From NCBI GenBank assembly GCA_032718475.1, contig JAUCBJ010004744.1, positions 1-58,687 of the forward strand: 58,687 nt of DNA. Direction: 5' to 3'. This DNA comes from Nemertoderma westbladi (taxonomy: Eukaryota; Animalia; Xenacoelomorpha). Below the pieces are notes generated by a model, which was given only the letters and a program-made list of their open reading frames with translations, was not told the DNA's origin and ran no database searches. Shown here in pieces: positions 1-32,095 of this stretch; the first letter of the stretch is position 1; each line of letters opens with the position of its first letter. Both the position numbers and the translations under genes were made by a program.

Positions 1-476
1 TTATCATTTTATATTTATGTATGTATTATTATGTAATTTTATTATAATCGTTTTCTTTAATTTTATTTAGTAGAATGTTATTTTAGCGATTATTTAGTAG
101 ATTAGTGCAATATATATTCGTGTTTATTATTTAATTACTTATATATTATATATTTAGTGCGACGGCGAGAAATAATTCTTTTTCTCTTTCCTTACTGTCC
201 GTATTACATTACAAATACGTAACTACAGTAAGATGAAATATCCGTACTTATTAAAGTACAATAAAGCTCCTACTATATTCAAGTATTATTGGTAAAGTAG
301 AGTATTAGGAATGCAAAATTCAGATCCTCGTGTCTCGGCTAAACCAAGCTCTGGGTAGACCTTGGAAACGACTTGCCTCTTCTCACTGACATTGCTTCGT
401 GCGATATTGCTCTCATACCGTATATTAAATAATACATATAGTAGCGTGATGTCCCTTTAACAGTAGCGTATAACGC

Positions 477-785
477 AAAATAAATCTGTTAAACCCTTTG
501 ACCATCTGCAATTCTAGTCGATTAAGATATCGCGGCACCCACCGATATACTTGAAAGACAAAATTCTAGAATCAGTGGTTAACGTCCCCAGACAAGTTCT
601 GGAATAAACTGGTGCCCATCCTAAATATTAATTATTAATATTTACAAAATCTGTCAAATTTTAGATCCTTTAAAATTCTAGTCTATTAAGATATCGTAGC
701 ACTTACCGATATTCTTAAAAAGACCAATTTCCTAGAATCAAGGATCCTAGTCCCCAGACATGTTCTGGAATAAAATTGTGTCTAT
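477..785 (+). repeat. Two diverged ~164-bp direct repeats, each able to form the same stem-loops
   Basis: TTCTAG..TAAGATATCG..CGATAT..CTT..CTAGAA and CCAGA-n5-TCTGG occur in both units (TTCTAG at 512 and 676); stems are conserved while loops differ. Confidence 0.75.
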
Positions 786-1404
786 TTAATATTAAATAAT
801 AAAATTTACGGGAATAAATTTAAATTCATATTTTAATGAATTTAATAAATTGTCATTTTTATACAATTTATAACATTCCCAAAATTCCTTTAATTAATAG
901 ATCATGGGAGCGGAGATTCACTCTATTAAGTGTATTAGTGTGCGAGAATCTCCAATATATAGTCAATAGCCGATAAAATTCATAAAATCATGTATAGAGA
1001 GGATATTGACCATTAAAGAATTACTATTAAATAGCATCCCAGATCTGTATGCATGAGAATTACCCTAATTCTACCGCTAGCTTTCCATAATGTCACCATG
1101 GCAACAACCACGCTAGAATTAGAAGTGAGTTAAAAGAACAATAGAAAGCTTGCCCCATTGAATAGCATAGGGAATAAATAGCGCACTGCTAGTATCCAAG
1201 GATACATAATAATAAAGTGACATTCTGGAAGGCACTGACTAACGGACAAATGGCCCGAATGTGTACAGTTTGTGACAGTTGTGTTGAATTTGTGCGTTTA
1301 TAGGTGAATGTTACTGCTAAAGTGTGTTTACAGTAGCGAGTCGCAATTGTGAAAGTAGCCCTAACTCTCCAGAAAGAACCTGAAGTACATCTAAGCCTTT
1401 GGGA

Positions 1405-1512
1405 CGGACAGTGGAGTGACTTGTGCCGGTTATCGTTGTCGTTGTGTAGCTACATCGTTGGCGAAAGCACAGCGACGACGGTACATCGGCGCTGAGGATC
1501 TTGCACTGTCCG
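1405..1512 (+). other. Long RNA stem-loop in the leader of the 1430-aa ORF
   Basis: 1405-1413 pairs with 1504-1512, 1423-1429 with 1486-1492, and 1431-1446 with 1468-1483; every non-Watson-Crick position in these stems is G-U on the + strand. Confidence 0.7.
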
Positions 1513-1593
1513 GGGGCAAAGAGGGGTAGGCAGCGACGCCCGCTAGCCTAAAATATAAACTCATTATAATATTGATAAACTCATATAGCAGAT

Positions 1594-4500
1594 ATGACTG
1601 AGTTGATAGAAGATGATCTTGGTATCAGGGAGCGATATACTCTACCTTTACAAGCGTTTGTCGATAGCTTGATACGCGGCGACGCTGGTCCAACTACTAC
1701 GGAGGATGATGGTCGTTATATCGAACCGCCAATGTCCCCGGAGCAACTTACGCGTGAATTGGATTATAGAAAGTTCACCGCTCGCTATACGCATCGTAAT
1801 GGTACGTATATGGACTTCTTAACTACTGGCCATCCTATCGATTTACACGATACGGACGATGTAGACACCGAAAGGGAAATGGTTTTATTTAAATATCATA
1901 CCCAGCGGAGTCGGAACGATAAACCGAGAATAGAACACGAGAATTCTATTCGAAACCGACTCGAAAGAGAAGACGTTGAAGAGCCGGATAAACGCAGCGA
2001 CTTCAACGATTATCTGGAATTCCTGAGAGAGACATATCTCAATATTGCCAGTCAACAAAATCTAGAAACTCGATATCCTCAAGGTATACATCATGATCCT
2101 ATGATAGAACTCAAACGACTCTATTTCACTATGATGTATCTTACCGCCGATCGACCGCTACCTGTCGTCCCAGATAGCTTCGAACAGATGGAGGAATATT
2201 GTAAAACTGGAGAACGATCACCCGCGTTTCCCCTGCAGGACGTGCGTCTTTGGTATTACTGCGACGAATGCCCTAGACCCAATCAGCAAACGGAAAGACA
2301 TAAACATCCGCGGAGACGTTGCGCTAAACACAGTTTTACACGATATACTTATGGGAGTTTCGAGCGAAACCTGTTCGACGTATCACCTACGGTCGCTCGG
2401 CTCAAACGATCCTTGAATAAACCAATGATCAGAGTTCCGGAATACTCGGTCAGACCTCCTCATTCCTCAGTTAGACCTCAGACTCTTGATCCTAATAGTA
2501 TCACGGATCCTCCCGAACTGTACTCACTGTTCAAAGATCTAGTGTTACCCGAACAGTTGATCGGTGGCACTCCGGTAGTGGGCTCACTAGATATTCGCCA
2601 ACCCTACCTAGCCGGATTAGGACGCGGTCATCTAATATCGCCGTTTAACCCGTACAACCGTCCCGGCTTCACCCCGATACAACCCGTTACGGAAGTCGAA
2701 GAGAGCGTCGTACGAAACGCGTTAGACGCTATTCGGCAGAAAATCGGAAAGGGAACTTACGATTGTTTGGAGAAACGTAAATTGCAGCAACAAGTCCAAG
2801 CGGTGAAAGAATTAGCTTTACCCCAGTTCGATAGAGAAATACAAAATCTCGAAGAGGACATCGAACGTGGACGAACCTACTCTTTACAAGAGTTCCTAGA
2901 TGAGCGTTTACAACAACAAGCGGAGGAAAATCAGCTCGAGGAGAGACATATAGAACTAGATGAGAGAGAAGAAGCAGCTTTAGCCCAGCCAGAAGCTCAA
3001 ATCCTTATAACAGATCTCTATTCTAAAACCATTATCCATCCTTCGATGGTTCCTCATTTCGGAGACAAACTCTTCGCCACGGCACAGCCTCAACCGGTTG
3101 ATATCAACCTAAGATCTCGAGATCTTATCGCTGACGCTCCCATGTTGCAACGTCCGCCCATCGAAGCCGCTCGTGTCGATGGTATACTCGTTGAACCTCC
3201 GGACAATAGAGCGGATCTTGTCCGTCGCATGGTACACGATGTTAACATACGCGCTAGACCTTTACCGGACTCGTTTTATGGGATCAAAGATCACCCTTAT
3301 TACGTCAATCTAACACAATATTACATGGTAAAACCGGAAGATCCTACACATAGTCTGAGGTTTCTACCACTAATAAATCCTCTCGATCTTGTCGAACTCG
3401 AACAACTGCAGAAACATCTGGATCAGTTAGTTAAAGTAAACTCATTTCGAAAACCATATAATGTTTCCAGAATAGAGAAAGAAACAATACCTCCGTATAA
3501 TCTTGATGGATTCATCAAAACTCGATTAGTACACTGGAATCTTGACGTGTTATTCGAGGAGGAAAGAATACAACGATATGGAGATGTGGAAACATATACT
3601 ACACAATACTTAAAGTATAGAGATCTACCTAATGCTAGCGAATGCGCTACCTTGTGGCATCCAGTGGGAATGACTCTCGAAAACGCCACTAAAGAGTGGA
3701 ACGAGACTCTTAACGTTATCGAGATGTATGGAGTTGTCACTTACGATAACGAAGGTAGCGTTCCGGTTGGAGAACTGGGAACTACGCGAATGATACACAT
3801 ACGAGGACTCGCTGGTTCTACCCACGTATTTACTCGAGCGTGTTCCGATGTGATTGATTATTCTTTTGAGACTCTTACTGAGACACAAAAGAAACTCCGA
3901 CATGGACAATTCGAACTCGCGCAGCGTTACGTCACCGACACCGAGCGCAAACCGGCCATGGGTATCGATGGATCGATGTTACCCCAGCCCGTGCTCGAGA
4001 TGTTGTTTAACGAAAGAATCCTTAAAATCGGCTCAGCTGTTTATGGAGATCTACAAAACGACTTTCGGAACATGGAGAACATTCCATACCCTTTCGTTGA
4101 TACTCAGCTGATTGCTCCCTGGGCAGAAGGCCGAGGTTTCTTCCGCACTATGTATGCCAATACACCCAGCGGCATTACTAAAGTACAACGAACCTCCATC
4201 GGACATCTTGCCTTTCAAGAATACGGATGGAATTTCAAGGTTGGAAATCCTATCAATTACCAACAAGTATATGGAGATCATTATTCTCGTTTATACTTTG
4301 ATGGACCATTGACCGCACCTGGCGCCATGTATAGCTTTATGAGTGTTCCACTTCGTCCCTCCTTAGCTATATACACGATCTTTGAAAACGCAGCACTTGC
4401 CGGTTGGCTAGCCGATGTGTGCAGTCGTACCATACGCGCCCATCCCTTAATACTTGGAACCAAACTCGCCAAGTTAGATGAACACAATAAATTCATCCGC

Positions 4501-5886
4501 TTCGAATGTTTCAGGCGCTTTCTGACTCCGTTCCGTAACGTTGATAGTCAGTTCAAGGACCGCGCTCTGACCAAACTCAGCCTAAGAGACTCAGCTGCGG
4601 AGAAGCTAAACAGCGCGGGATTTGCCCTTTTCCAGGACGTTTGTATACAGAACTTACATTCATCTGTTATACAAAGACCCCGAATACCCACGGGTTATTC
4701 TGTCGTGGAAGTTCAGACAGTGGGTCCGCTTGCGGAGACAGCCGCACCTACCTCAGCTATGCAATTGGAAGACGAACCAATATGCTTAGAATCTGAGGCG
4801 ATTCAGCCTACAGCGCCCCGGAGCAGCGATAACGACTACGTCTTAGAGTGGTATCAAGGTCCACAATGTCTCACCGCATACGATTATCGACACGCCAACT
4901 ATGTTTCTCGAAAACGTTGTCGATTATGCGCATCGAGAGACCATTTCACCCCTATGGACTCAGACGTACCCTGCTCCTATTTCCACGAACAACCGATGAT
5001 GGAGATCTATTGTGCGTATTGCAGACTTAATAACTCGCACATTTTTGCAGTCTGCCCCCAATTTATGACTCAATGCCACCACTGTCAACTTAAAGGACAT
5101 GCCAGTTATAATTGCCCCTTTAACCGCGATTTAGAAAGCGTAGATGAGATGATTACCCTGCGCTACATCCGAGCTTGGGAAGCGAACGCGGATTTACATT
5201 GTGAGTCCCGCCATCGCTATTACCCTGGACGCTCTTACGAGGGAGTTTACGCGTTCCATCCTTATTTATTCGCGTCTGTTGAACAAAAAACACGCACACC
5301 GAGTTACGAACTAATGAAGCGTGTTGGTGAGTGTATTTCCACCAAATTTGTTCGAAAATATCTCAGGAACGTCAATCCTAACGATATTACTTCATACCAT
5401 TTGATCAATTTCATCCGTCAAGACCCTGAGTATGGCGATTTATTTATCAACTCGCACCCTGAGTTACAGGAAGTATCTCGACGGCCCTACGAATATCGAG
5501 CCCGAGAACGCGAGCTGGAAAGAACCATTAAACCGAGGAAGTTTCTCACCACTCACGGTCCACCTACCGCCATTGTCCAGACGACCCGTCAAGGACCCGT
5601 AGGAGCTGCTGTCCTAAGACGTGCCCTAAAGGCCTTTAGACCTCGCTCCACTGAAGTTGATATCGATCAACCAGGTACTTCGACCGGCGGATACACCGAT
5701 CGTAATCCTAAACCTTCTGATGCAATTGTATTGCACCCTTCACCTTCACCCTTCATATCCTTCGCCCCAAAGAGAAAAGGACTCTTGCTAGCCTCAAAAA
5801 ACTGCGTAAACGCCATCCGCGTAAGAAAGACTAACTGTTTAGAGTATTTTTATATTTTAGAAACTGTGATTTTTTATATTTTATAG
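1594..5886 (+). CDS. 1430-aa intronless protein with a coiled-coil, a DEDDy/WRN-like 3'-5' exonuclease domain and a C-terminal CCHC zinc-knuckle cluster; probably of mobile-element or viral origin
   Basis: ExoI-like VTYDNEG (D at 3745, E at 3751), ExoII-like ILKIGSAVYGDL, FVDTQ, SIGHLA, ExoIII-like PLRPSLAIYTIFEN; CRLC..H..C, CAYC..H..C and CHHCQLKGHASYNC at 4918-5115; more GC-rich than its flanks; the last ~15 codons run into AT-rich DNA. Confidence 0.75.
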   Translation: MTELIEDDLGIRERYTLPLQAFVDSLIRGDAGPTTTEDDGRYIEPPMSPEQLTRELDYRKFTARYTHRNGTYMDFLTTGHPIDLHDTDDVDTEREMVLFKYHTQRSRNDKPRIEHENSIRNRLEREDVEEPDKRSDFNDYLEFLRETYLNIASQQNLETRYPQGIHHDPMIELKRLYFTMMYLTADRPLPVVPDSFEQMEEYCKTGERSPAFPLQDVRLWYYCDECPRPNQQTERHKHPRRRCAKHSFTRYTYGSFERNLFDVSPTVARLKRSLNKPMIRVPEYSVRPPHSSVRPQTLDPNSITDPPELYSLFKDLVLPEQLIGGTPVVGSLDIRQPYLAGLGRGHLISPFNPYNRPGFTPIQPVTEVEESVVRNALDAIRQKIGKGTYDCLEKRKLQQQVQAVKELALPQFDREIQNLEEDIERGRTYSLQEFLDERLQQQAEENQLEERHIELDEREEAALAQPEAQILITDLYSKTIIHPSMVPHFGDKLFATAQPQPVDINLRSRDLIADAPMLQRPPIEAARVDGILVEPPDNRADLVRRMVHDVNIRARPLPDSFYGIKDHPYYVNLTQYYMVKPEDPTHSLRFLPLINPLDLVELEQLQKHLDQLVKVNSFRKPYNVSRIEKETIPPYNLDGFIKTRLVHWNLDVLFEEERIQRYGDVETYTTQYLKYRDLPNASECATLWHPVGMTLENATKEWNETLNVIEMYGVVTYDNEGSVPVGELGTTRMIHIRGLAGSTHVFTRACSDVIDYSFETLTETQKKLRHGQFELAQRYVTDTERKPAMGIDGSMLPQPVLEMLFNERILKIGSAVYGDLQNDFRNMENIPYPFVDTQLIAPWAEGRGFFRTMYANTPSGITKVQRTSIGHLAFQEYGWNFKVGNPINYQQVYGDHYSRLYFDGPLTAPGAMYSFMSVPLRPSLAIYTIFENAALAGWLADVCSRTIRAHPLILGTKLAKLDEHNKFIRFECFRRFLTPFRNVDSQFKDRALTKLSLRDSAAEKLNSAGFALFQDVCIQNLHSSVIQRPRIPTGYSVVEVQTVGPLAETAAPTSAMQLEDEPICLESEAIQPTAPRSSDNDYVLEWYQGPQCLTAYDYRHANYVSRKRCRLCASRDHFTPMDSDVPCSYFHEQPMMEIYCAYCRLNNSHIFAVCPQFMTQCHHCQLKGHASYNCPFNRDLESVDEMITLRYIRAWEANADLHCESRHRYYPGRSYEGVYAFHPYLFASVEQKTRTPSYELMKRVGECISTKFVRKYLRNVNPNDITSYHLINFIRQDPEYGDLFINSHPELQEVSRRPYEYRARERELERTIKPRKFLTTHGPPTAIVQTTRQGPVGAAVLRRALKAFRPRSTEVDIDQPGTSTGGYTDRNPKPSDAIVLHPSPSPFISFAPKRKGLLLASKNCVNAIRVRKTNCLEYFYILETVIFYIL

Positions 5887-7091
5887 ACTAAAATCCCATT
5901 TTCTGGGAGCGGTGTAAAAGCTTTTGCGGAATTAGCCGGTTATTTTCCCCGTAAAGTACTCTGTAGTTGGTTTGACAGGCATAAAAGGCCTTATCCTTAC
6001 TGTACTGGTGTTTTAGTGGACATAAAAAGCCATTTCTTCTGTATGTGTACTTTAGCGGACATATTAGCAATTCTATGACGCAATACGCGAAATCCTCTTG
6101 AAACAGTGTAGTTACTATGACGACAGCTAACAGCTGATCTGTACACGTGTAGCTTTTTCCTTGTTCTCTGGTGTTTCTTTGTTCGGTCAACCAATCAGAG
6201 CGATTCTCCTGCTTTTTGTACAGAAACCTCCGGGAAATCGCGCAATGCATTATGGGTCAATGTTTACATTTTGTCCTGAGCCCAGAAGACCGGCTTTGGA
6301 ATCTCTGTGTTTTCAGTCTTTAGCCCAACATTAGTAGGCTTAATTATAGAACGTATATCTGTTATCATTACTTACTTAACTAATCATACCATAACATATC
6401 ATAACCATTCATACCTTAACATTTGTACTGCTATTTACTGTCGGTTATTCATTATATCAGTTGATGGAATATTATTATATTTGGAATACCGATAAATAAT
6501 TACAAAACCCTCAATCTTCTTGATATACTGAAGGTAAGAGAGACCGGTTACATATAACGATTGCGACTTACATTAAAGTGGTTTTTGAAGTGAATCTAAT
6601 GCTATTTCATAGGCACTACATGTATTGGTTGTTGTTCTCTTTATATGTGACTAAAATTAGTGAAGGTCGGCAGATCGGTGTGCAGCATTGTGCAGTATTG
6701 TGTATGATTGTGACTGATAACAAAGCATCTCCTAAAGAATGCGCCATATACGTCAATCCATAGCCATCCCGTTGTGTCTAGTTTAAGTCATAACTCTGTT
6801 TACATATTTAGAGCGCCACGTCCTAAAGGAACTGTTAATATTTCCCGAAAGTGAATAATATTTGTCAGAGATTATATATTACGATCAGTCGAATAATACA
6901 GTAGGCCTACACCGCAATAAGGTTAGGCTTCCGAATCCAGTCTCCCGGGTATATCCAGCGGGTGAATGGTCGCGCATAGACTGGCTTCGGCTAATGTAGT
7001 GTATCAAATACTCGTTAAAATGGATATTTTTCCCTAGGGCAAAATAACTTTTTTGGCCGTAGCCCAGCATTAGAGATAGTTATCATCCCGC

Positions 7092-7267
7092 TAATAAATG
7101 TGTAACAACTATGCTTATTCCCCAGAAGTTAGTTATTTTCCCAGTTATTTAACCCGCGGGCAGGAAACAACCCGAGGGCGAAGCCCGAGGGTGTTCCTGC
7201 CCAAGGGTTAAATAACTGGGAAAATAACTAACTTCTGGGGAATAAGTAAGTTGTTACACATTTATTA
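7092..7267. repeat. ~175-bp near-perfect palindrome centred on CCCGAGGGCGAAGCCCGAGGG
   Basis: Arms TAATAAATGTGTAACAACT..CTTATTCCCCAGAAGTTAGTTATTTTCCCAGTTATTTAACCC and their reverse complement. Confidence 0.95.
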
Positions 7268-8369
7268 TGGTATGCATTTCGATTATTTTTGTCCCTTAAC
7301 AACTATTTACAGATTCTAAAAGGGCATTGTTTGGGGGAAGAGTTTACAAAATGGGGCTTGGAAAGTTTTGGGGGTGTTTATATTGATTTTGCCCAAGGGC
7401 ATTGGAAAATTTTCGGTGTGTTTCACTTTAATTCATTAATTGCATAGGTGTTATTTTGCCCAAGGGAATAATAACACCCAAGCTCCAAAGGTAAAACATT
7501 AGGCCTACTGTGTCATGTGTGTTGTATAGCTCTATGCTTAATTCATCCAATCGCCGTAAGATTCGATCATCAAAAAAGCACCTGAATTTGTTACTGAAAA
7601 TTGATGTCAAACTTATTTAAATGGTTTACATTCTAAAATTCCCATTTTCTTACATTGGCCGCTAGGAGTAACATTGGATAAACTTCAAATTGGATATATG
7701 TATAACTAAATTGGCTGAATTAATTGAATAGTATTTTTGGTGGACATGTCATGTATCCACTACCCACAGAAGGGTGGTGTATATCGTTCACATTAAATAC
7801 ATTTATTAGTATAAATAATTATTTAGTACTTAGGAAAATGTTAATTAATTTAATGGTTCTGGAATATATGAAGTTTATTAAGAATATATATTATATGTAT
7901 ATGAATATATATTAATATATATATATTACTTACTATTGAGTTTCGGATTTTGCTCAAACTACGTGGATAGCTACAAACATTTTCTATTTCGATGCTCTTT
8001 CAACACATGTAATGAAGTTTAAGAAATTCCACGAAAAATATTTTCACATTTACATTTTTCGCCGGGAGAAGTTCAATGCAATCCTAGGCCTACTGTATGA
8101 TTAACTATTATTCCCTAGGGAAAAAAAGTAGGTACTTCTTTTTCTCCACATTTTGAGCTATATTTGAGCTAACTAAATAGTAACATTATAAGAATAACAT
8201 TAATATTCCCATAGTAACGGGTTGTTATGCCAGTTTTAAAAGAATGATGTCACTTAGAGTCGACCAACACCTATTTCCGCTCCACTATATCAAAGTATGG
8301 TCTAGAAAATGTAGTTTTGGCTAAGAACTGCATAAAAGTAAAGTAAAGTTATATTCAAACGTGTAAGAA

Positions 8370-8595
8370 GAAACACCCGAGGCAACAACCCAAAGGCTCC
8401 ATTCTCTTGGCTATTATCTGTAACGCAGGGAAGGCACCACACTACTCCCAAGGTCGAGTACTCTGGTTATCTAACCTTATTCTTTACTCCTTAACTCATG
8501 TCAGGTTGCCATTGGCCTACAGTACAACTGGAAGCTAGCAACAATTTGGCTGTTCTGGGGCTTGAACACCAGACCTTCCGCTTAGAAGACCGGTT
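8370..8595 (-). mobile_element. Degenerate tRNA-derived SINE
   Basis: B-box-like GTTCAAGCCC on the minus strand near 8557-8567 within a tRNA-like head. Confidence 0.4.
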
Positions 8596-9532
8596 AATAC
8601 TTTTTTTTTACTTTACTTTAATATTAAAACGTTTCAATGTCTGTATTAAAAAGAAAAAGGCAGAAAGGGGCGAACGTATTTAAACGACATTCTTAGATAT
8701 CTTTTTTTAACATTTAGGAGGAAGGAACTGGAGAAACGCCTCACTGCAGTACGAGGTAGTACGGTACCTTACAACCTATATTAATACAGGCCAAACTATA
8801 CCTACCTGCAGGGCTGCAGTCTGCCGACCTGGTACGGTGCGACTCTGGACTGTGACACTATGTAGGCCTACTGTACCGGTACCTCTTAATTTGCCGTGGA
8901 AATTGAAAGTTTAGTCATAGGTCAGTGCCGTCAGTATAAGTCGTCAGTATGAGTATGACAATGAGGTGATTAATGAGACATAAATAGGCCTTGCTGTCTA
9001 GAGGAGCACAGCCCAATAATAATGAAACATGAAATACAAAACGCCCAATAATAATGAAACATGAAGTACAAAACTAGTTGGTGGTCTGAATACCTGATTT
9101 ACACCTGATGTGACACACAACAGACCTAAGACGAGTACAGCAGCATTACCGGTTCCTATGTTTGTATGTCAGTATGTAACACTTCACTACTCTAAGAGGG
9201 AATAACATGGATATTTTTCCCTAGGGCAAAATAACTTTTTTGGCCGTAGCCCAGCATTAGAGATAGTTATCATCCCGCTAATAAATGTGTAACAACTTTT
9301 TATATTTCAAAGGTATTGATTTTATTTTCACTGCTACATATGGGAATCCACCATTAACAAATAAAATATAATAATTCTTAGTCTTATGATACATTTTGTA
9401 TGCATCTCTAGGAAGTAATATGTTAGATTATTACATATTCATCACCAAAACATCACATTTAACTTAAAATAAAACACACTGAGAAACATTTACTAATGAG
9501 ATGTTTATCTAGAGACTTGAATGATGAGACTT

Positions 9533-12500
9533 TTAATTGCTTGATATCTTAGCTGCCAAATATAACAAGCTGTTCTTCTTTTCTATTAGACTTTCTGGTG
9601 TGTCAAATTCCACTATATGTCCTTCACTCATCACTATTATTCTATCGCAGTTTATAATGGTATCTATCCGATGTGCTATTGTCATAACTGTTGCGTTAGG
9701 GAAATTCCTAGAGATGGCAGACTGTATAAGTTCATCGGTAAACTGATCAATAGAAGATGTTGCCTCGTCAATTAGAACAACCCTATATTTTCTTAGCATA
9801 GCTCTCGCTAAACACAGAAGTTGTCTCTCTCCAACACTTAGGTTACTACCACGGCTTTCAACATAAAAAGTTAAGATATCTATTTCCCCTTCTTTGGGAA
9901 TAATTGAACCATATTTATATTTGGACTCAAGTCTCATTTCCAAAAAAGACTTCAATTGAACCCTTTCTAGAGCTTCAATGATCTCAATACTTTCAAACTC
10001 ATTAAAAGGATCTAAGTTATATTGCAGAGTGCCTTCAAACAAAACAGGATCTTGTGGAATAACTGCAATTGACTTCCGTAAATCATGCAAACCAATTTCA
10101 GTTATATCAACATTATCTATAGTGATTAGTCCTTGAGGTTCAACAAGACGAAGTAACACTGTAAATAATGATGATTTTCCGGCTCCGGTGCGCCCAATAA
10201 TTCCGATCTTCTCAGAAGATCTTGTTTTAAAGTTTATTCCATGCAACACCTCATCATCTCCATAGTTAAGCTTCACATTTTTGAAGGTGATAATTCCAGA
10301 ATTTGGCCATTTAGTTGGAATTTGCGTGCCAGAAATGTGGAATTGAGCCTCTTGGTCTAATTTATAGTAATCAAGTACTCGTTCAACAGATGTTAAATTA
10401 ATTTCCAGTAGCGCTGACATTTTTATGAAATATGTGATAAAATTGGTGGTTCCAAACACATATATTACTGCTACAAACAATATCTCCTTAGATACAAAAC
10501 TATCCATATACAAAGAAATTAGTAAAACTGTAAATGCTAAAAATGGCATAAGGAATTGATATACTGATGCTAAGCAACGTAGTAAGATTATGAACCATAA
10601 ACATTGATTCGGTATGATGATCTAAGTGGGAAAAAAAGCGTTTCACGTAAATCGGTTGGACTTCAAATGCTTTTATAATATCACGGCCCTCCATAGTATC
10701 AGAAGCATGTTGAAATATTGGATTTCTCACTGATGCTTCAATAAACTTAACCTGTTTAAGACTTTTCATAATATACAAACGTATCAAGAAAACCATGATC
10801 ATTGTAGGGATAGCCAGCAATAAGGTCCATGGATTAGCTATTCCCGAAAGTAAAACTGCAAGAATGCAACGACTGAATGTATTTACGATTTCAACAATTA
10901 AATCTGGTAATATGTTGTCCATTATTCCAATATCTTTAGAGAATCGGTTGAGTATTCCACCTGCGGGATTCTGTTCAAAGAATTTCATTGGGGCATGAGA
11001 AACTCTTTTGAATATTTCTCCATGTAATTTATCAGATGCACCTAGTATAGCATGATATATTGCAAACATACCTAATGTACTGCACAGTAAGTATGAGAAA
11101 ACCAGATATGCATACCCAAGTACAATATCTCTCCACTGGCTCTCTATTATTAGTTGGTTTATAATATTATTATTGAGTTCAACATAATTTTGTTTTTGTG
11201 AATTATTAAATGATTCTTGAGTAGCCCAACTTACCAACCAATAATCTGACAATGACAGATATATGTATGTTAAAATCCCTGTTGATATTAATACCAGAAA
11301 ACGTGGTGCATTTAATCCAAATTTAATAAAAATGAGAATAATTGAAAACGTTGACTTGACTGATCTATCTTTATTATCGAAATTATTGTCAATATTGGGG
11401 TTGTGATTATCATCTTCGATAATTTTACTTTCATACATTTTAGAATAAACAATTTCTGTACCATTCGATGTCTCTGGCAAATCGCTTCTAATTAGGGTTT
11501 CAGTAACACCTTTGCCATAAAGAGACACTGTTTTTGAATTTGGAGGTATAATTTGTAGGAGGTGGGTGACCATGACGACAACTCCGTTGGACTGACAGTG
11601 CTTTAAACAGTTATCAACCAAGTCTTTGGCCACTCGTCTGTCTACAGCTGAAAGAGGATCATCCATAAGGTATATATTTGCCCTGGAATAAACTGCTCTT
11701 GCTAAGGCTATACGAGCTTTTTGACCACCAGATAATGATATCCCCTTTTCACCAACTAAAGTCATATCACCATCTTTAAACAGTAATAAGTCTGCTGATA
11801 AGCAACTTAGTTTAATAACTTCATCATACCAATCTCCTTCAAATATTTGCCCCAGCAAGATATTTTCCCTTATTGTTCCGGAGAATATGAATGGTGTTTG
11901 AGATACATAGGCCAGCTTTCCATTTTTCTCAATTAATCCACATTCAGGAGGCAATTCACCTAGTATTGCCTGCAATATGCTGGACTTTCCAGAACCTACT
12001 GGACCTATAATGTAAACTATTTCACCAAAAACTGCTTTGAAAGATACATTATGAATGATAGACCCATTCTTGAAAGACCATCTTCCTGTAATGTTTTCTA
12101 CCTTTACAAAAATATCTTTTGGATTTGGCATATTTCTTATTATTCCATTCCTTTGTAAGTCCTCTACATTAAACAATTGGTAATTTAAACCTATAAACGA
12201 ATCAATTCGTTGAAAAACACAATGAAGTTCCCCCAATTCACGTAAAGCAGCACCAAACACTAGTACGCTTGTGATTACATTGATTAATATGATGTTGGAG
12301 CTCATTACTGTGATTATATTTAATGGATACCCAAGTCCAGTATACAGAACATAGACACAAAAGGTGACAACATTAATATAGGCAAACAAAATGGTTGAGT
12401 AAAATGAGTGGCAATACATGATCTTACATATCTCTGATAATTCTTTACTTCGGGCATTCTTTACAGCAGCCTCATATAAATCTTCCCACCCAAACACTTT

Positions 12501-15126
12501 GATTGCTTTCATGCCAACTAATATTTCATGTATCAATGTTATTCTCCGATCAGTGAATGATGCAGCTTTCCGACGTACTAATGAAAATAATTTTGCAAAT
12601 CCTAGACTCAATGGGAAGACTAACATTACGAGTAACATACCAAAAATACCAGACCATTCCAGATTGAAATACATTAAAGGGAACACTAGAAATACCAAAA
12701 TAGGTGTTGAAATTAGACTATTCGCCAGAAATGAAAATTGTTCCACTCTTCCAACATCAGAGGACAACAAGTTAGTAACTTGACCTGTTGTAGTATTATT
12801 GATATTCCATGAATTTAATGTCAATATCTTTCTATATATAAGGGTACTGCATCCAACCTTAATTTTCATCCACAATAGGTTAGAATAAAAAGAAGAATTT
12901 ATGTTAGCAAACACTGATAAAAAAGAAGTTATTCCAATTATTAAGCAATCAAATAATGTTTTTTCTATTGAAAAATTGCTATCCATTTCCAAATAGTGTC
13001 CAATAAATCGTTGTAGAAATAATACTCTAACCAGCAGTGAAACTTCATGAATAGTTCTTAACATAGAACAAATGAGGTATTCTTTCCAATGTATTATTAT
13101 CAGTGTTCTCAGAATATTGAATTCTTCTTGTCTTGTTCCTCCGACTTTCTGAAATATATAAAAAATAAGAATGAGACCCCTTACATCACCTATATAATCG
13201 ACATGCTATATTGTAGTTAATGCAATACTGGCTTATTGACAAAATTGAGCAACTACAACTCCCTATCCCCCATGACTTTAGAGAGATGATCAGTATCTTC
13301 AAGGTTAGTGTCCTTTAAGAGGTGTCTCAAGAAAGTCATGGAATGTTCACCACATTCATTCTATCTATGTTTCTGCTAAAGCACCAGATAGTGCAAAGGT
13401 TGGTCCTCATGGCATAAACAATGTGCAGCAAAACGGAAAGGTGACTCCATTCAAGTGTAAGCTTGGGCTAAAGAAACACCTACAATGCATTATTGGTCTG
13501 GTTGGAGATATGTTTATTAAACTTGACATAATGAACCTGGTGTAACATTCTTGTGTATGAGCCATCCTGAGATTTGTTGTCCTCAGCAGTTAGAGCCCAA
13601 AATTTACTTCCATATAGGAGACCAGTTCTACTGCTGCTCTAAATAATCAACCTTGAGATTACATTTTATTCTGTGACTTCCAACCCGTAGATACACCATT
13701 CAATTTTGCCCATGCCTTTACCTTTATATATGCAGAGGTTGTCACCTGACTTTTATGCATACTTTTATGCTTACTTTACCAATTAGCAGAATCCACATAA
13801 GCAAGCAAACTTGATCCTGGCGTTGGAAGTTATGTTCATAATTCAGACATTTGTTGAGCACTGTTTAAGTAAACTGTCATCATGTTGGTCTTCATGAAGT
13901 TAACAAACAACTAACACTAGAAGCAACCAGCTCCAATGAGCTGAAGGGTCGATGAAAATAAACAAAACTGGTATGTATGCAGTCGGTCAAACGTCTAGAA
14001 ATGAATCTGAAGTTTTGTAAAAAAAATGAGACTGTCTATCAGTCAGTACATGTTAGTTTCAAACTTTTGATATAAACCGAAATAAGTCAGTCAATCATTG
14101 AAGAAATTAAATCAAACTTTGTAATGTATGCAGTACGACAAAAGGTTGGAAATAATCTGAAGCTTGGTCAAAAATGAGACAGTCTGTCAGTCGGTACCTG
14201 TAGTTTCAGACTTTAAAAAAAATCTAAAATAAGGCATCCAATCACAGATGAACTTAAACCAAACTTGTTATGTGTGCGGCTGCGTGCTGCGTGAAGGCCC
14301 CATGAACGTGTCACCAATAATGTGTGTATTTCTGAGTACATATTGTGTTTATAAAGCATTAAATTATTTATCAACGGGCAAAATCATGCCATTGTTTTAG
14401 AGCTTCTCAAAGGGGGACTTCCAACAGCTGATGTGATCAGCTGGAGATCTGCCTTAACCTTGGTGTTTTGTTTCCATTCACTCTCAGGCAGCAGATTTCT
14501 AGATTGCCTGCAACCATCATCGGCAGTGTTGATGGCATCAACCTGCTGATAGCTCCAGTATATGATATCTAAAATTAATATCCTTTTCCTGCAATAATTA
14601 GTTACTAACGACTCTGCAAAAACTATCTTACATACACTTACTGTAGCTTATAATGGCTATCAAAATTAGAAAATACTCAAGCAACACGTGTTCTAGAAGT
14701 TTATTGTTAGTGATTATTTTGCAGCATTCAACGCGATAGGCTACAACAGTTACGAGGATATCACTATAACGCAGAGAAGTTACATAATGTAGAAATATAT
14801 ACTATTTAATTTTAAAGCATAAATTTCGACCAACATGATGTTGGATGTAGTGTCCTACTCCCAGAAACGACTTTTACAACCTCGCCTCAGAGTCATTACT
14901 TTGATGGAGCGACTGCATGTAAATAGAACACAATAACACCCACCTTGCTGTTTAGAGTTTTTAGTAAAATGTAGCTCTGGTAATCAGCTGTTAGACTTTC
15001 AGGAATTGGTCTAATGAAGTCATCACTAGAGATTCTCCTGTGCGACTGGATCCTTAGAAAAGGCAAAATGTATGAATAGAACAAAGGGAAGAAAGGGTTA
15101 ATTTTCAAATGTGCAATCATAATCAT
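9533..15126 (-). CDS. ABCC/MRP4-like ABC transporter (L0-TMD1-NBD1-TMD2-NBD2, no TMD0); at least 2 exons; one frameshift near 10550
   Basis: NBD1 GPVGSGKS, LSGGQ, YLMDD; NBD2 GRTGAGKS, LSVGE, VLIDEA; TMD2 FFEQNPAGGILNRFSKD. Upstream exon ~15126-14944 encodes L0-like NPFFPLFYSYILPFLRIQSHRRISSDD; phase-0 GT-AG intron 14943-13149 joins it in frame to exon 13148-9533. Confidence 0.9.
13965..14275. repeat. Degenerate ~150-bp tandem duplication in the ABCC intron
   Basis: TATGCAGT..AATCTGAAG..AAAATGAGAC..TCAGTC..TAGTTTCA occurs twice. Confidence 0.6.
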
Positions 15127-16457: not shown

Positions 16458-19175
16458 GTATGTAGGTCTCCTGTATGATAATTATACAGTTTGATGTGGT
16501 TCTGTATTCGTATCAGTTGGTACATTATGTACGATGTATGTAGGCCTACTGTATGATAATTATACAGTTTGATGTAGATCTGTATTCGTATCAGTAGGTA
16601 CAGTATGTACTATGTATGTAGGCCTCCTGGATGATAATTATACAGTTCGATGTGAATCTGTATTCGTATCAGTTGGTACAGTATGTACTATGTATGTAGG
16701 CCTATTGTATGCTAATTATACAGTTTGATGTGGATCTGTATTCGTATCAGTTGGTACAATATGTACTATGTATGTAGGCCTCCTGTATGATAATTATACA
16801 GTTTGATGTAGATCTGTATTCTATTCTGTGTATGTACAGTACTATGTATGTAGGCTTTCTATGATAATTATACAGTTTGATGTGGATCTGTATTCGTATC
16901 AGTTGATACAGTATGTACTATGTTTGTAGGCCTCCTGTATGATAATTATGCAGTTTGATGTGGATCTGTATTCGTATCAGTTGATACAGTATGTACTATG
17001 TTTGTAGGCCTCCTGTATGATAATTATGCAGTTTGATGTGGATCTGTATTCGTATCAGTTGATACAGTATGTACTATGTTTGTAGGCCTCCTGTATGATA
17101 ATTATGCAGTTTGATGTGGATCTGTATTCGTATCAGTTGATACAGTATGTACTATGTTTGTAGGCCTCCTGTATGATAATTATGCAGTTTGATGTAGATC
17201 CGTATTCGTATCAGTTGATACAGTATGTACTATGTATGTAGGCCTCCTGTATGAAAATTATGCAGTTTGATGTAGATCTGTATTCGTATCAGTTGGTACA
17301 GTATGTACTATGTATGTAGGCCTCCTATGATAATTATACAGTTTGATGTGGATCTGTATTCGTATCAGTTGGTATAGTATGTACTATGTATGTAAGCCTT
17401 CTGTACGATAATTATACAGTTTGATGTAGATCTGTATTCGTATCAGTTGGTACAGTATGTACTATGAATGTAGGCCTACTGTATGATAATTATACAGTTT
17501 GATGTGGATCTGTATTCATATCAGTTGGTACAGTATGTACTATGTATGTAGGCCTCCTGTATGATAATTATACAGTTTGATGTGGTTCTGTATTCGTATC
17601 AGTTGGTACAGTATGTACTATGTATGTAGGCCTCCTGTATGATAATTATACAGTTTGATGTGGTTCTGTATTCGTATCAGTTGGTACAGTATGTACTATG
17701 TATGTAGGCCTCCTGTATGATAATTATACAGTTTGATGTGGTTCTGTATTTGTATCAGTATGTACGAAGTATGTAGGCCTCCTGTATGATAATTATAAAG
17801 TATGATGTGGATCTGTATTCGTATCAGTAGGTACAGTATGTACTGTGTATGTAGGCCTACTGTATGATAATTATACAGTTTGATGTGGTTCTGTATTTTG
17901 TATCAGTTGGTACAGTATGTACTATGTATGTAGGCCTACTGTATGATAATTATACAGTTTGATGTGGATCTGTATTCGTATCAGTTGGTACAGTATGTAC
18001 TATGTATGTAGGCCTACTGTATGATAATTATACAGTTTGATGTGGATCTGTATTCGTATCAGTTGGTACAGTATGTACTATGTATGTAGGCCTACTGTAT
18101 GATAATTATACAGTTTGATGTGGATCTGTATTCGTATCAGTTGGTACAGTATGTACTATGTATGTAGGCCTACTGTATTATAATTATGCAGTTTGATGTG
18201 GATCTGTATTTGTATCAGTATGTACGAAGTATGTAGGCCTCCTGTATGATAATTATAAAGTTTGATGTGGATCTGTATTCGTATCAGTAGGTACAGTATG
18301 TACTGTGTATGTAGGCCTACTGTATGATAATTATACAGTTTGATGTGGTTCTGTATTTTGTATCAGTTGGTACAGTATGTACTATGTATGTAGGCCTACT
18401 GTATGATAATTATACAGTTTGATGTGGATCTGTATTCGTATCAGTTGGTACAGTATGTACTATGTATGTAAGCCTTCTGTACGATAATTATACAGTTTGA
18501 TGTGGATCTGTATTCGTATCAGTTGGTACAGTATGTACTATGTATGTAGGCCTACTGTATGATAATTATACAGTTTGATGTGGATCTGTATTCGTATCAG
18601 TTGGTACAGTATGTACTATGTATGTAGGCCTACTGTATTATAATTATGCAGTTTGATGTGGATCTGTATACGAATCAGTATGTACTGTACGATGTATGTA
18701 GGCATCCTGTATGATAATTATACAGTTTGATGTGGATCTGTATTCGTATCAGTTGGTAAAGTATGTACTATGTATGTAGGCCTATGCCTCCTGTATGATA
18801 ATTATACAGTTTGATGTGGATCTGTATTCGTATCAGTTGGTACAGTATGTACTATGTATGTATGCCTCCTGTATGATAATTATACAGTTTGATGTGGATC
18901 TGTATTCGTATCAGTTGGTACAGTATGTACTATGTATGTATGCCTCCTGTATGATAATTATGCAGTTTGATGTGGATCTGTATTCGTATCAGTTGGTACA
19001 GTATGTACTATGTATGTATGCCTCCTGTATGATAATTATACAGTTTGATGTGGATCTGTATTCGTATCAGTTGGTACAGTATGTACTATGTATGTAGGCC
19101 TCCTGTATGATAATTATACAGTTTGATGTGGATCTGTATTCGTATCAGTAGCAGACAGTATGTACCATGTATGTA
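16458..19175. repeat. 78-bp satellite array, about 34-35 units
   Basis: Consensus GTATGTAGGCCTCCTGTATGATAATTATACAGTTTGATGTGGATCTGTATTCGTATCAGTTGGTACAGTATGTACTAT. Confidence 0.97.
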
Positions 19176-20911: not shown

Positions 20912-21670
20912 TACTACTATTACTAAGTCGAGCGATCTCGGACAGTGGAAATGAGATCCTTCCAGGCTTCCCGATTCTCCATAGTTGTCGCAATTTCGTT
21001 TCTCCCAAGTTCAGTATCCCTTTAAAGTTGATCTATATATGTTATGGCCGGTCGTCCACGACTACGCTTTCCATGAGTTGGTTGCCAGAAAAGTAGATCT
21101 TGTATGACCTCGTCTTTACTTCGCCAGCAGTGCCCACTGAATCTTAATCTGCGTTCAAGGAGGGTGGTTGATACAGGTGGTATTGTACCATAAAGCTCGG
21201 CGTTTGTCATGTGTTGTCTCCAGCTGATGTTTAGGGCTGCCCTTAGTAGTCTTGTGTAGCAACCATCAATTCGTTGATCAAGTGATTTAGTCAGTGTCCA
21301 GGTCTCACCCCCGTATAAAAATACATTTTCTACTGTTGCTCGAAAGAACTTAGTCTTCAGGTGCCTGGGGAGATCTGATTTCCAGGTGGTATCCATTTTT
21401 GATAGAGCTGCCTAAGCCTTTGCTTTCCTAACTTCTATGTCCTTTTTGCTACTCTCTATCCATGATCCTAGGTACTGGAAGTCGTCAACCTTCCTTAGTT
21501 GATTATTATCAATGGTTGTCAAGTTTCCATCAACATTAAAGGTCATGAATTCGGTCTTGGTAGCATCTATATGCAATCCAACCTCCTTAGCAGCCCTCTC
21601 CACTTTATTCAGTAGAAGCTGTGCATCTGCTAGCGTATTAGAGAGCAGGGCGATGTCATCCGCGAAGTCG
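20912..21670 (-). mobile_element. 5'-truncated RTE-clade LINE 3' end (RT C-terminus) with (TAG)n tail
   Basis: DFADDIALL, FQYLGS, LYGGETWTL, RRLRFSGHCWR, RGRP; in-frame stops at 21412 and 21022; TAG-repeat tail at 20912-20926. Confidence 0.9.
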
Positions 21671-21671
21671 T

Positions 21672-22098
21672 GGGCGAGGAGGTGCTCAGGTGGGTCCGCG
21701 AAAACCAGGACGAGCACCGCCTGCCGATCATCTTCATGACGATCCGCGACGACGAGAGCGGCATCACCCAGATTCTCAACGCGGGCGCCGACGATTACGT
21801 CGTCAAGCCCGTGTCGGGGCCGGTGCTGCGCGCGCGCATCGACGCGCTGCTGCGGCGCGCGTATCCGGCCAATACCGAAGCCGTGGTGCGCGAATTCGGG
21901 CGCTACAAGTTCGATACCAATCTGAAGCAGGCCTATCTCGACGACAAGCCCGTCAACCTGACGCTCAAGGAATTCGAGCTCGCGCTGCTGCTGTTCCAGC
22001 ATCTCGATCGGCCGCTGTCGCGTGCGCACATCCTCGATCTGGTCTGGAAGCAGGCGACCGATATCCCGTCGCGTACGATGGACACGCACGTGTCGATG
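21672..22098 (+). pseudogene. Fragment of a bacterial OmpR/PhoB-family response regulator (high GC), truncated at both ends
   Basis: LPIIFMT, GADDYVVKP, LRARIDALLRR, LTLKEFEL, LSRAHILDLVW, RTMDTHVS; abrupt GC-rich island with G/C-ending codons. Confidence 0.92.
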
Positions 22099-22381
22099 TA
22101 GCAAACAGTACTACTCATATTATAATTTGATGTGTGTTTGAAATCCTGGGGACTATGTACACCAAAGTTACATCAAGTTTTATTTTTGAAAATATTGAAT
22201 TTTATTAAAAACACGAAATTTAAAATGGCCATAACTTCGGTTCTAATGAACCAAATTTGTTGAAATTTTCAACATAACTTAATAATAGCAATATCGTCAG
22301 ACCCTGTAAATTTGGTAAAGATCGAATCATTTTAAAAAAATGAGTGCCACCGAGATTTGTCGAATTTGAATGGAATCACTC

Positions 22382-22687
22382 GCCCACAAATATCATGTAG
22401 ATAACGATAGAACGCTTCTTCATCCCCATTGAAGTCAATGAAGCGATTAACGAGCTGATAAGCGTATTTAATTCGCTTTGTTCCCAGCCGCTTGGAGAAT
22501 GCTTCACCAATCTCGGGAACCTCTATGACCTTTGTTCCCAGCCGCTTGGAGAATGCTTCACCAATCTCGGGAACCTCTATGACCTTTGTTCCCAGCCGCT
22601 TGGAGAATGCTTCACCAATCTCGGGAACCTCTATGACCTTTGTTCCCAGCCGCTTGGAGAATGCTTCACCAATCTCTTGAACCTCTA
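22382..22687 (-). pseudogene. BAF-like gene copy 1, truncated, with ~4 x 54-bp HhH repeats
   Basis: Same sequence as the copies at 34 kb and 41 kb; ends just after HDICG. Confidence 0.75.
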
Positions 22688-29564: not shown

Positions 29565-30469
29565 TTATTGTTGAATGTAGTCATGGAAGGAGTTCAAGCC
29601 CTTTAGATTAGTGAGCAGCATACCAATCCAAAATCGTTCTGATTTTCTTAGTTTCTTTATTGTTTCTACGCAGTTATCCCTTCTTGGTAATTGATCGATC
29701 AAAATAAATTTCAAGTTTTTGGAGGATTTGTTGTGTTTTTCGATGAGATGTACGCCGATATTGCAACTTTTCACACCTTTTTTTATATGAGATTTATAAT
29801 TTCCAAGCCTCTTCTTGAAATTGATTGTTGAGCCAACACCCTGTAAATTGCATTCTATGCAGATAGCTAAATATACTACATTTTCCGAGTAACAGTTTAA
29901 TCGTTTGTTTATTTTAAAAGTCTTGCCTGTAGCTACACATTTGAAATGGTTGGTGTCAATTAAGTAATTTTCACAACAGTCACACTTTTTAGCGCTACAA
30001 TTGTAACAACCAGGATTATCAATGCATGATAATTGTTTATATGGATTGGATGGTGCTAGAAGTTCTTTTAGGTTTGGGTTTCTTTTATATGCAACAATTA
30101 TTTCGTTTTGAGGTAGTATTTTCCTTGCCATTTCGTTTGACTCTAATATACCATAATGTTTATTGATAAGTCTTTTAAAGTTTGGAGCCATTGGGTTATA
30201 CGTTGTTACTAAAACTGTTGGATTTTTAATACTTTTGTTTTTTCCTTTATAATTTCTTGCTTCCAATCTTTGCATGTTCCTAACTTCTTCAAAGACTGTA
30301 TTTACATGATCTGCATTATGTCCACACTTAATTAGGTGGTTCTTGTACACGTTACCTTGAGTCACATAGTCTTTATCTTTTGTGTTAATTCTTTTCAACC
30401 TTAAGGCCACTCCTTTAGGAATTCCGTTGATTTGGCATTTAGGGTGGGCAGATTTACTATTTAAAGTTA
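29565..30469 (-). mobile_element. 5'-truncated Penelope-like element: thumb, Cys-rich linker and GIY-YIG endonuclease
   Basis: SAHP..IPKGVALRL, CYNCSAKKCDCC, NVVYLAIC..CNLQGVGST..RLGNYKS, E.FWI..L.T..GLN; homology to the longer copy ends at ~30469. Confidence 0.9.
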
Positions 30470-32095
30470 GATTACAAGTTTTTTGGAAGATACTATGAAG
30501 TTGGACATACATAATATGAGAGATTGTCGAAAAATATCAAAAGTAATCCTCTTGGGGTATTATTTTACCCCACGTTACCGGGGGAGGGTTAAAAGATAAT
30601 TTCGACCAGTTCTCCAAGCCAAAATAATATATTTTCCTTCTCAGCTAATTTGTTGGAGCCATTTTCGGATAGGAAAGTGACTCAAGGGTCATAAAATCCA
30701 CAAGGTTGACTTTTGGGCAGCAACTAAGAAATTTAAATAACACTTAATTCGAAGATCTGCCAAAATGTTGTTATCAGATTTTGATAAACGATACAAAGCG
30801 AAAGAAAGATAAACTACCAACCTACTACAGGCAGCAGGTAGTTGGGAAAAGAGGAAGGACTGTGCCAGCACTAATTACTAAAGGTATGATTCGTACCATC
30901 AGAATTCGTACCATCTTTATGAGTTCCTTTTGCTCAGCTCGAACTGAGCAATCCATTAGTCCGCTTATAACCTTTGCCGCTTTAGTGGCTCCTGCCTTGT
31001 TAACCGCTGCGACCTGCGTCTTTGCAGTGTCCTTCCCGAGCACGCGCCGCCCCCCCTTCTTTCCGACCGAGTTATTGTTTAGTCTCTTAAGATTGACTTT
31101 CCCTCTATGGGAGCTCAGGGCTTTAAGTTTATAAACAAGACCGAGATTCTTCTGATCTTGTTGATACTAAATAATAATGTTGCATTGTAGATGCAAGCCT
31201 TGCGTGATTTAATACTGAAATGGTTTGTAAGTGGTTTATTCAGTATGTAATAAAATAATTAATGTTTTCTTTTTTTTTATTCTTTAATTATTTTGATATG
31301 TATTTATTAGGGTGTTATATATTTTTTCAATTTGTTATGATATTGCCACTCCTCATATCCCGAATTTTTTAATTTGGCGCCCTTCACAAATCAGTGTCTT
31401 ATGGCACTTGCCTCCACCCCCCTCTGTCAATATTCAACCACGACGCAGTCAGGGCGAGCCTTAGCGCACAATTATAATCAGTAATAGTCGGTAAAAAATT
31501 TAATGTCGGTCTGTAATGAAAAATTCATTCGTAAATAAGTTGATTCAGATAAGTCAGAAGATTAGTCAGTATGTGATGAATACAATACTCCAGGCTACTG
31601 ATGATAAGAGAGATGCCCAAAAGGCTCTTCTTATATCTAAAGAATGGGGTTAATGCCACTCATTGTTCGGTGAAGCAAAGATGTATGTATGCCTCACATG
31701 TCCTTCAAAAAATGGAGGATGATATTGAGTTGAGTTTACATTGTGATTGATACTACTGACCAGCATTTCTTCCATAAGGATTCTTAACTAAAACCACATA
31801 TGGTAGACAATCCTGAATCTGAAATTAAAAGGGCGAATCTTTATATCTATGTAAAGAAGGGATGCTATAACATAACTGAGATCCAGCGTAATAAATTTCT
31901 TGCAAATTTTGCTGATCAAAGTAAAGTGAAGTATGCCAAGCATGTTGTAGTATTCCTCTGTAGAGAAAATCTTAAGGAGGATAATGGAGAATGCTTTATT
32001 CTAATTAAAAAAATATTTTTTTTCGAACATATCCAAGAGTTACAATGCTATTAAAAAAAACTAGTAAAAAAACTATTGTTTTTTTTCAGTTTATA

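Follow-up and report, generated by a model that had tools for sequence, protein, structure and literature searches.

Here we describe a giant open reading frame (ORF) on the plus strand of a 58,687-nucleotide stretch of Nemertoderma westbladi DNA (contig JAUCBJ010004744.1; the whole stretch is hereafter called the window). The frame (1594–5886) is stop-free over 1,430 codons, which has a random chance of ~1e-33 at its own base composition. It is genuine, as an earlier reading made without database searches (hereafter the sequence-only reading) had held for these 4.3 kb. A high-copy mobile unit, at least 7 kb long and present in very many divergent copies, carries the ORF as its only large gene. 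Its product comprises an N-terminal half of 680 amino acids (aa), a putative exonuclease domain, three zinc knuckles and an aromatic tail module (Table 1).

Five sequencing runs contain the ORF or part of it, four of them from one coded organism; no RNA run containing it was listed. Four runs, from at most three samples, were mapped at 85% likeness onto positions 1–7800 only (X1–X4; X5, with a share of 0.10, was left out). The contigs aligned to the unit numbered 55,855, 33,415, 16,237 and 612, and about half of the aligned contigs were either below 95% identity or between 95 and 99%. Summed contig depth is no copy number, and only its cliff and rough shape are used here: in X1 it was 0.7–1.6e6 (1–2080), 1.2–3.3e5 (2601–5720), 1.06e6 (5721–5980), 1.5–1.7e5 (5981–6500) and 1.26e6 (6761–7020), and then 5.7e3 (7021–7280). 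The cliff after 7020 is also present in X2 and X3, with a smaller drop in X4. Base composition differs across this boundary as well, with a GC content of 0.457 and an observed/expected CpG ratio of 1.29 in the ORF versus 0.34–0.37 and 0.5–0.64 in the DNA past 7020. A second copy of the ORF was not found elsewhere in the window by tblastn.

The ORF family is under purifying selection and is accompanied by abundant deleted derivatives. Eleven of the 40 variants listed (from 1,479) lie in 1594–5834; nine of these are at third codon positions (p 0.001) and eight are synonymous, against 33.8% expected for random transitions (p 0.01), and three synonymous variants among those listed fall at 5616–5625. 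None of the 12 indels listed (from 138) lies in 1594–5834, and one is at 5870; both listings favour well-covered places. Thirteen of the 15 deletion joints listed (from 75) are inside the ORF, although most joints have short sides (22–34 nt) that are flagged as unreliable at 85% likeness. Five of those listed skip 2.5–2.8 kb (1962–4767, 2944–5693, 2951–5498, 2955–5685 and 2955–5706); all five remove the exonuclease, and four of them the knuckles too. The sequence-only reading had the gene cut at its 3′ end near 5840. This is probably wrong: the high-copy unit continues as far as ~7020, and of the five long joints listed, four rejoin upstream of 5840, at 5498–5706.

Sequence comparisons argue strongly that residues ~695–950 form a divergent exonuclease domain of the RNase D/WRN/EXD (DEDDy) type, with motifs ExoI (D718-x-E720), ExoII (D819) and ExoIII (Y927-x3-E931). 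The whole protein matched nothing significant in Pfam or among PDB sequences, and the exonuclease pieces matched nothing relevant among PDB sequences (alignment A2 had ExoI out of register). With aa 680–1010, the top scores in the ESM Atlas were 0.92–0.93, against a background in which shuffled proteins score 0.9 in 4–10 of 100; 25 of 30 matches belonged to a set with PF01612 (DNA_pol_A_exo1) on 50% of its members. The RNase D model TIGR01388 matched aa 798–842 at E 0.0016, far under the family cut-off. When aa 691–949 were searched against 301 whole bacterial genomes, matches at E<=1 came from 61 of them, and RNase D-like genes made up 23 of the 30 best loci, with individually weak E-values (best 0.002).

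These comparisons were extended with a reference set of RNase D-like sequences (70 gathered by a PF01612 search, of which one, L180, was dropped for its wrong frame, leaving 69). A hidden Markov model (HMM) of the 69 scored the ORF at 5.7 bits and its relative P0005, described below, at 5.5 bits over the same ExoII stretch; the best of 501 decoys reached 4.2. In hhalign, the three-member family (the ORF and its two relatives) aligned to the references with a probability of 71, an E-value of 3.8e-5 and a score of 38, and with ExoI, ExoII and ExoIII in register. A two-member profile scored 42.7, yet with ExoI and ExoIII out of register (maximum for 60 column-shuffled two-member profiles, 19.8). 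In the profile alignment D718 and E720 pair with the reference D and E in 69 of 69, and D819 pairs with the reference D in 69 of 69 across all 42 MAFFT settings, whereas the register of all five residues depends on the alignment (3 of 24 settings in one set, 0 of 18 in another). The strict Y-x3-D of ExoIII was not found: Y927 is kept and E931 occupies the Asp position, in P0005 likewise. We therefore class the ORF as a putative DEDDy-type variant that is RNase D/TbRND-like and lacks the strict ExoIII Asp.

The AlphaFold model has a confident alpha/beta core, in blocks with a predicted local distance difference test (pLDDT) score of 82–94 (mean pLDDT 63; predicted template modelling score 0.63). 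Its Foldseek matches were EXD2, RNase D, Egalitarian and WRN (E 2e-4 to 2e-3; template modelling score 0.28–0.45 by query length), and it also resembles giant-virus DnaQ-like exonucleases; the Foldseek matches are partly circular, as 69 of the 72 input rows were RNase D and the MAFFT setting was chosen for register. Sequence-level evidence independent of the model points to the same DnaQ-like alpha/beta fold class. WRN, EXD2, Egalitarian and bacterial RNase D share fold class and motif order with the ORF. By contrast, identity to them is 11–17%, and the ORF has two long insertions and the ExoIII Glu, with no HRDC or helicase domain detected.

Downstream of this domain, the knuckles have the spacings CX2CX4HX9C (aa 1109–1127), CX2CX5HX4C (1140–1154) and CX2CX4HX4C (1161–1174), of which one in three is canonical. 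In a search of the PDB, the knuckles of the A1 profile resembled nucleocapsid knuckles (E 5e-4). Against 1.84 billion representative proteins, aa 640–1240 found two matches, P0005 (648 aa, E 1.3e-7) and P0006 (633 aa, E 4.6e-4), both unnamed singletons from unrelated contigs; BLASTP of aa 1043–1223 to P0006 gave E 2e-11. The two proteins share one layout of exonuclease domain, linker, triple knuckle and aromatic tail module, and are without the N-terminal 680 aa of the ORF, that is, they are stand-alone exonuclease and knuckle proteins. P0005 keeps D-x-E, D and Y-x3-E-N; although only 24–30% identical, it and the ORF agree at each of the four acidic positions and at the Tyr. The ExoIII Glu thus reads as a family trait and not as decay, because P0005 has it too. 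In P0006, the knuckle and tail module is present twice, by internal duplication.

The first 680 aa found no match in searches with N-terminal pieces. The Cys/His cluster that the sequence-only reading had picked out is present at aa 223–247 and matched no family in the library search, and no capsid family in Pfam or the PDB matched at E<=10 at the sequence level. Homologue searches of a protein collection were empty, which are weak blanks, as one of them missed the query alignment's own members present there. Relatives were found neither in viral contigs nor in prokaryotic genome contigs, and tblastn against phages and plasmids gave nothing significant; its weakest row (E 9) was an RNase D, used only to seed the references. 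A helix-hairpin-helix suspected by eye at aa ~995–1015 was rejected for want of Pfam support.

The ORF is preceded by a structured non-coding spacer. Between its two duplicated stem-loops, 30 of 30 predicted pairs are kept, two of them changed on both sides, in a comparison of two sequences only. A hammerhead suspected by eye in the hairpin at 1420–1500 was rejected, as Rfam support was absent; no Rfam ribozyme or other family matched 1–7500 at E<=5, save two weak miRNA-type matches. These two, at 5840–5925, were rejected as well, because the predicted fold there is no more stable than that of shuffled sequence (z -1.3).

At the 3′ end, this copy is probably frame-broken near 5720–5750 and reads on into non-coding DNA, with the last ~45 codons as called probably being read-through. 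Another frame encodes a Lys/Arg-rich tail with a stop at 5832–5834, and P0005 likewise ends in a basic tail. Four X4 contigs diverge from this copy behind 5744, and many copies have a one-base indel at 5870. As the sequence-only reading had observed, no reverse transcriptase (RT), integrase or recombinase ORF follows; the only frame of at least 100 aa in 5888–9533 is one of 122 aa on the minus strand. The order 3′ of the stop is instead a T-rich stretch, GGGAGCGG (5905–5912), TGTAA (5913), 1.1 kb of non-coding DNA and the depth cliff. We take the G-rich tract, TG and 1.1-kb segment at 5905–7020 to resemble a polypurine tract (PPT) followed by a 3′ long terminal repeat (LTR), and 5913–7020 is plausibly such an LTR. 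The unit's 3′ end is abutted by a lower-copy palindromic repeat (7016–7480; arms 7114–7166 and 7194–7246, 96% complementary), the first 95 bp of which recur at 9203 (9203–9298).

The contig that codes for P0006 (L001; coding positions 127–2025) is the sole relative with DNA context. Its order is ORF, GAGGAGGAG, TGTTTTGAG, 1.09 kb of non-coding DNA and CA-GT-TGG; TGT follows GAGGAGGAG, and 230 nt past CA-GT-TGG a new acidic ORF runs off the contig. This is what a collapsed LTR would give (ORF3–PPT–LTR–primer site–gag), the primer site and gag being candidates. We give an about even chance to the reading that the giant ORF is an accessory 'ORF3' of a large retrotransposon, placed just upstream of its 3′ LTR and encoding a protein that would act on RNA 3′ ends. 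The pol gene would then presumably lie upstream of the window.

The closest precedents for this reading are the rotifer LTR elements Juno and Vesta. According to the accessible text of PMC5408684, they carry a DEDDy ORF3 with the acidic motif DEED, for which roles in RNA 3′-end processing or silencing are proposed and untested. The DEDDy ORFs of Juno, Vesta, Athena and Terminons resemble our ORF in being RNase D-like exonucleases in a separate extra gene with an altered acidic tetrad. However, the motif is DEED in the rotifers and D-E-D-E, with Glu at ExoIII, here. The same portion of that paper gives the rotifer ORF3s no coiled-coil domains, does not report a triple knuckle and puts the rotifer LTRs at 159–551 bp, whereas our ORF has 1,430 aa with an unmatched N-terminal half of 680 aa (the comparison is by description, not by sequence). 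The sequence-only reading had invoked DEDDy cargo in rotifer and nematode retroelements; the rotifer precedent stands, and a nematode one was not found in the literature searched.

A model for activity is offered by the RNase D of Trypanosoma brucei (TbRND), in which CCHC knuckles come after a DEDD exonuclease; they bind single-stranded RNA and raise cleavage (PMC7797062). The likeness lies in an exonuclease followed by several CCHC knuckles. TbRND, however, is a host enzyme of mitochondria, with four knuckles and a linker of 28 aa, whereas the ORF is repeat-borne, with a linker of ~160 aa, three knuckles and the aromatic tail module; the match of the knuckle region to the PDB entry used for this comparison (7c45) is weak (E 0.37). 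By analogy with TbRND, the substrate of the ORF product may be RNA. The knuckles would grip single-stranded RNA while the exonuclease domain trims RNA 3′ ends, most likely those of the element's transcripts or of small RNAs that the host directs against it. The benefit to the element would lie in maturing its own RNA or in removing host small RNAs, and the many genomic copies that lack exonuclease and knuckles would depend on mobilization in trans. Among enzymes of the wider RNase H fold, RNase HIII and PhoExo I are active with a D-E-D-E catalytic set (PMC4538837), and the D-E-D-E site of the ORF may well be active too; our literature search found no DEDDy-class enzyme with such a set.

Several points weigh against an active enzyme encoded ahead of an LTR. 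The ExoIII Asp is replaced by Glu in the ORF, and in P0006 the ExoI Glu is a Lys and the ExoIII segment is missing; apparently dead members thus exist, and activity seems not to be obligatory in the family. The comparison of the AlphaFold model is partly circular, as noted, and a single-sequence fold was unsuccessful (pLDDT 30.6). As for the LTR, the inverted-end match of the candidate is at chance level (686 of 2,000 shuffles), as is a terminal inverted repeat between 5836 and 7020, the unit end reads ...CTCGTTAAAA with no clean CA, and no exact TG...CA pair stands at the boundary. X1 depth in the middle of the candidate (5981–6500) is not above that of the ORF, which counts against an LTR because one common to all copies should run higher. 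No pol, 5′ LTR or target-site duplication was seen, the unit running off the 5′ end of the window, and the window holds no second copy of 5913–7020. In L001, the TGG site is without a matched tRNA and the downstream ORF had no gag match; a 25-nt inverted match there (68–92 / 2837–2860, E 0.04) could mark a DNA-element layout.

Possible, if rather doubtful, is that the protein has little or no catalytic activity and, as a pseudo-nuclease, binds structured RNA in the manner of Egalitarian and helps to package or transport the element's RNA via its stem-loops, which would be compatible with any element class. The ExoIII Glu fits this, as does P0006, which looks inactive yet retains two knuckle modules; conserved long stem-loops lie upstream of the ORF, and Egalitarian is among the (partly circular) Foldseek matches. 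Egalitarian does not need its catalytic residues to bind stem-loops of I-factor RNA through its exonuclease-homology domain (PMC13186709). Against it stand the retention of four acidic positions and the Tyr between two proteins as diverged as the ORF and P0005, and the activity of D-E-D-E sites in RNase HIII and PhoExo I.

An unlikely alternative is that the same protein is cargo of a DNA transposon or another non-LTR unit, the ends of which are kept in deleted non-autonomous copies; the exonuclease would then process the DNA or RNA ends of transposition, as proposed for Dada. High-depth ends with a deleted middle are the usual pattern of deletion derivatives, and here depth is high at both unit ends and low in mid-ORF, with the five listed joints skipping 2.5–2.8 kb; the inverted match around the L001 ORF, although weak, points the same way. 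Dada transposons, too, encode a protein of very large size in which Cys fingers accompany a DEDDy domain, and the transposases with that domain bear CCCC and CCHC fingers (PMC3706591). However, our ORF has no DDE transposase signal, and no transposase family matched it or its pieces (in libraries without a Dada profile); the ~640-aa relatives leave no room for a DDE domain, and no small-RNA-gene target was seen. The ORF is also intronless, whereas most Dada elements have introns according to the same source, and the 7020 end has no inverted-repeat partner in 1–6990 beyond chance (63 of 500 shuffles).

It is quite improbable that the ORF is cargo of a Penelope-like giant retroelement of the Terminon/Athena type, a class that shares DEDDy ORFs with the rotifer LTR elements. 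Terminons bear DEDDy and coiled-coil ORFs as separate genes (PMC5408684, PMC6431247), and the window does contain RT and GIY-YIG fragments. Those pieces, however, lie 15–50 kb off on the other strand; the 7020 end carries no telomeric repeat, and the Rfam search described above gave no hammerhead or other ribozyme.

Very unlikely, too, is that the ORF is an ORF1 in the Gag position and that insertion of a separate 1.2-kb repeat at ~5836 cost the element the pol that once lay downstream. Tandem CCHC knuckles are shared with Gag, and ours resemble those of nucleocapsid; 5836–7020 has a depth profile of its own, and a very divergent capsid could lie within the N-terminal 680 aa, as the capsid searches were made at the sequence level. 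But no capsid domain was detected, the exonuclease comes before the knuckles, two of the three knuckles are non-canonical and no pol lies downstream. Neither relative has the N-terminal half, and what comes after P0006 is not pol but 1.3 kb of non-coding DNA. By eye, no 4–6 bp duplication surrounds 5836–7020, and the deletion joints retain 130–340 nt before 5836. Thus, of the Gag-like ORF1 of a mobile element that the sequence-only reading had proposed, the mobile origin is upheld by the multi-copy state and the Gag-like part is not, given the absent capsid match, the position of the knuckles and the stand-alone relatives.

A host gene of the Mut-7, EXD1, EXD2, Egalitarian or TbRND kind, or a domesticated single copy, shares the domain class but is extremely improbable, since tens of thousands of variant contigs (unless from another organism in the same samples) refute a single-copy gene, the CpG ratio differs from that past 7020 and no close homologue exists among the 1.84 billion representatives. 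The sequence-only reading had staked itself on a DnaQ-like fold and on the sequence not being a single-copy host orthologue. The evidence supports that fold class, and the sequence occurs in very many copies; the central claim of that reading, WRN/EXD-like exonuclease motifs (with E for D at ExoIII) fused to three CCHC knuckles, is borne out.

Little is known about accessory genes for enzymes in animal retrotransposons. In the literature searched, DEDDy cargo comprises that of rotifer retroelements (Juno/Vesta), Terminons and Dada transposons, with no activity shown in the text available of these sources (PMC5408684, PMC6431247, PMC3706591, PMC5718144 and PMC6338049); Troyka has no such DEDDy domain in the portion available of PMC12440569. 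A transposon ORF with a DEDDy domain and triple CCHC knuckle was not described in that literature, outside which lie Repbase and most subscription papers. The ORF would add a further DEDDy cargo lineage, marked by Glu at ExoIII, TbRND-like knuckles, a shared tail module, purifying selection and an abundant element, and it offers a compact domain for asking whether nucleases that trim RNA or counter silencing are encoded by transposons themselves. A bolder proposal, which we think unlikely to hold, is that a D-E-D-E exonuclease, triple knuckle and aromatic tail define an undescribed, widespread invertebrate retroelement accessory family. Its members would be counter-silencing or RNA-handling enzymes that trim host small RNAs or protect and route the element's own structured RNA, helping the element to reach very high copy number.

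Table 1. Features of the high-copy unit and its ORF in window coordinates.
Feature	Position	Strand	Basis or remarks
High-copy mobile unit	1..7020	+	5′ end at or before window start; 3′ end ~7017–7021
Non-coding AT-rich structured spacer	1..1593	+	Longest stop-free frame 86 aa in six frames; high depth
164-bp tandem duplication, each copy a long stem-loop	482..809	+	Folding z -3.7 and -3.6, 0/200 shuffles
Long GC-rich hairpin ~100 nt 5′ of ATG	1420..1496	+	z -4.9, 0/200 shuffles
Giant intronless ORF as called (1430 aa)	1594..5886	+	Coding signal to at least aa 1348
Cys/His cluster, aa 223–247, possible zinc site	2260..2334	+	C223-x2-C226...H236/H238...C243...H247
Acidic helical-looking stretch, aa ~395–465, possible coiled coil	2776..2988	+	Sequence; non-significant NudE match E 1.8
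Putative DEDDy-type 3′-5′ exonuclease domain, aa ~695–950	3676..4443	+	D718, E720, D819, Y927, E931
Three Cys/His zinc knuckles, aa 1109–1174	4918..5115	+	Motif spacing; zf-CCHC_3 E 7e-4
Aromatic tail module 3′ of knuckles	5146..5493	+	Alignment A1; common to both relatives; invariant E, A, R, Y/F, P columns
Probable frame break in this copy	5720..5750	+	Inferred; other-frame basic tail, X4 divergence, 5870 indel
G-rich tract directly 5′ of TG, candidate PPT	5905..5912	+	Sequence
Candidate 3′ LTR, ~1.1 kb (alternative start TGT 5836)	5913..7020	+	TATA-like 6873, TCAGTC 6885, AATAAG 6916, hairpin 6992–7017

The rest of the window holds further genes and repeats. An ABCC/MRP-type transporter occupies ~3.7 kb of intronless minus-strand sequence (9533–13205) in two overlapping frames (10500–13205 and 9533–10621), with a frame break or sequencing error near 10500–10620. 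Retroelement pieces lie on the minus strand at 56149–57633, 29565–30536 and 21412–22110: respectively, a candidate Penelope-type RT without a Pfam match, which we assign by motif, a GIY-YIG domain (E 7e-5) and an RVT_1 fragment (E 9e-9). An intact-looking intronless ORF of 739 aa (49971–52190, plus strand) has no Pfam match; by eye we take it to be a hAT-related DNA transposase. A 54-bp tandem unit forms arrays at 22476–22687, 34194–34606 and 41323–41867 (3.9, 7.6 and 10.1 copies), and its minus-strand frames match the family of BAF, the barrier-to-autointegration factor (E 4e-9), which makes it a repeat element in which a BAF-like helix-hairpin-helix piece has been amplified. A 78/156-bp satellite of ~35 units lies at 16458–19175. 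A small element at 55264–55861 has 54-bp inverted ends and an internal GTCY microsatellite, and a similar microsatellite occurs at 42348–42455.

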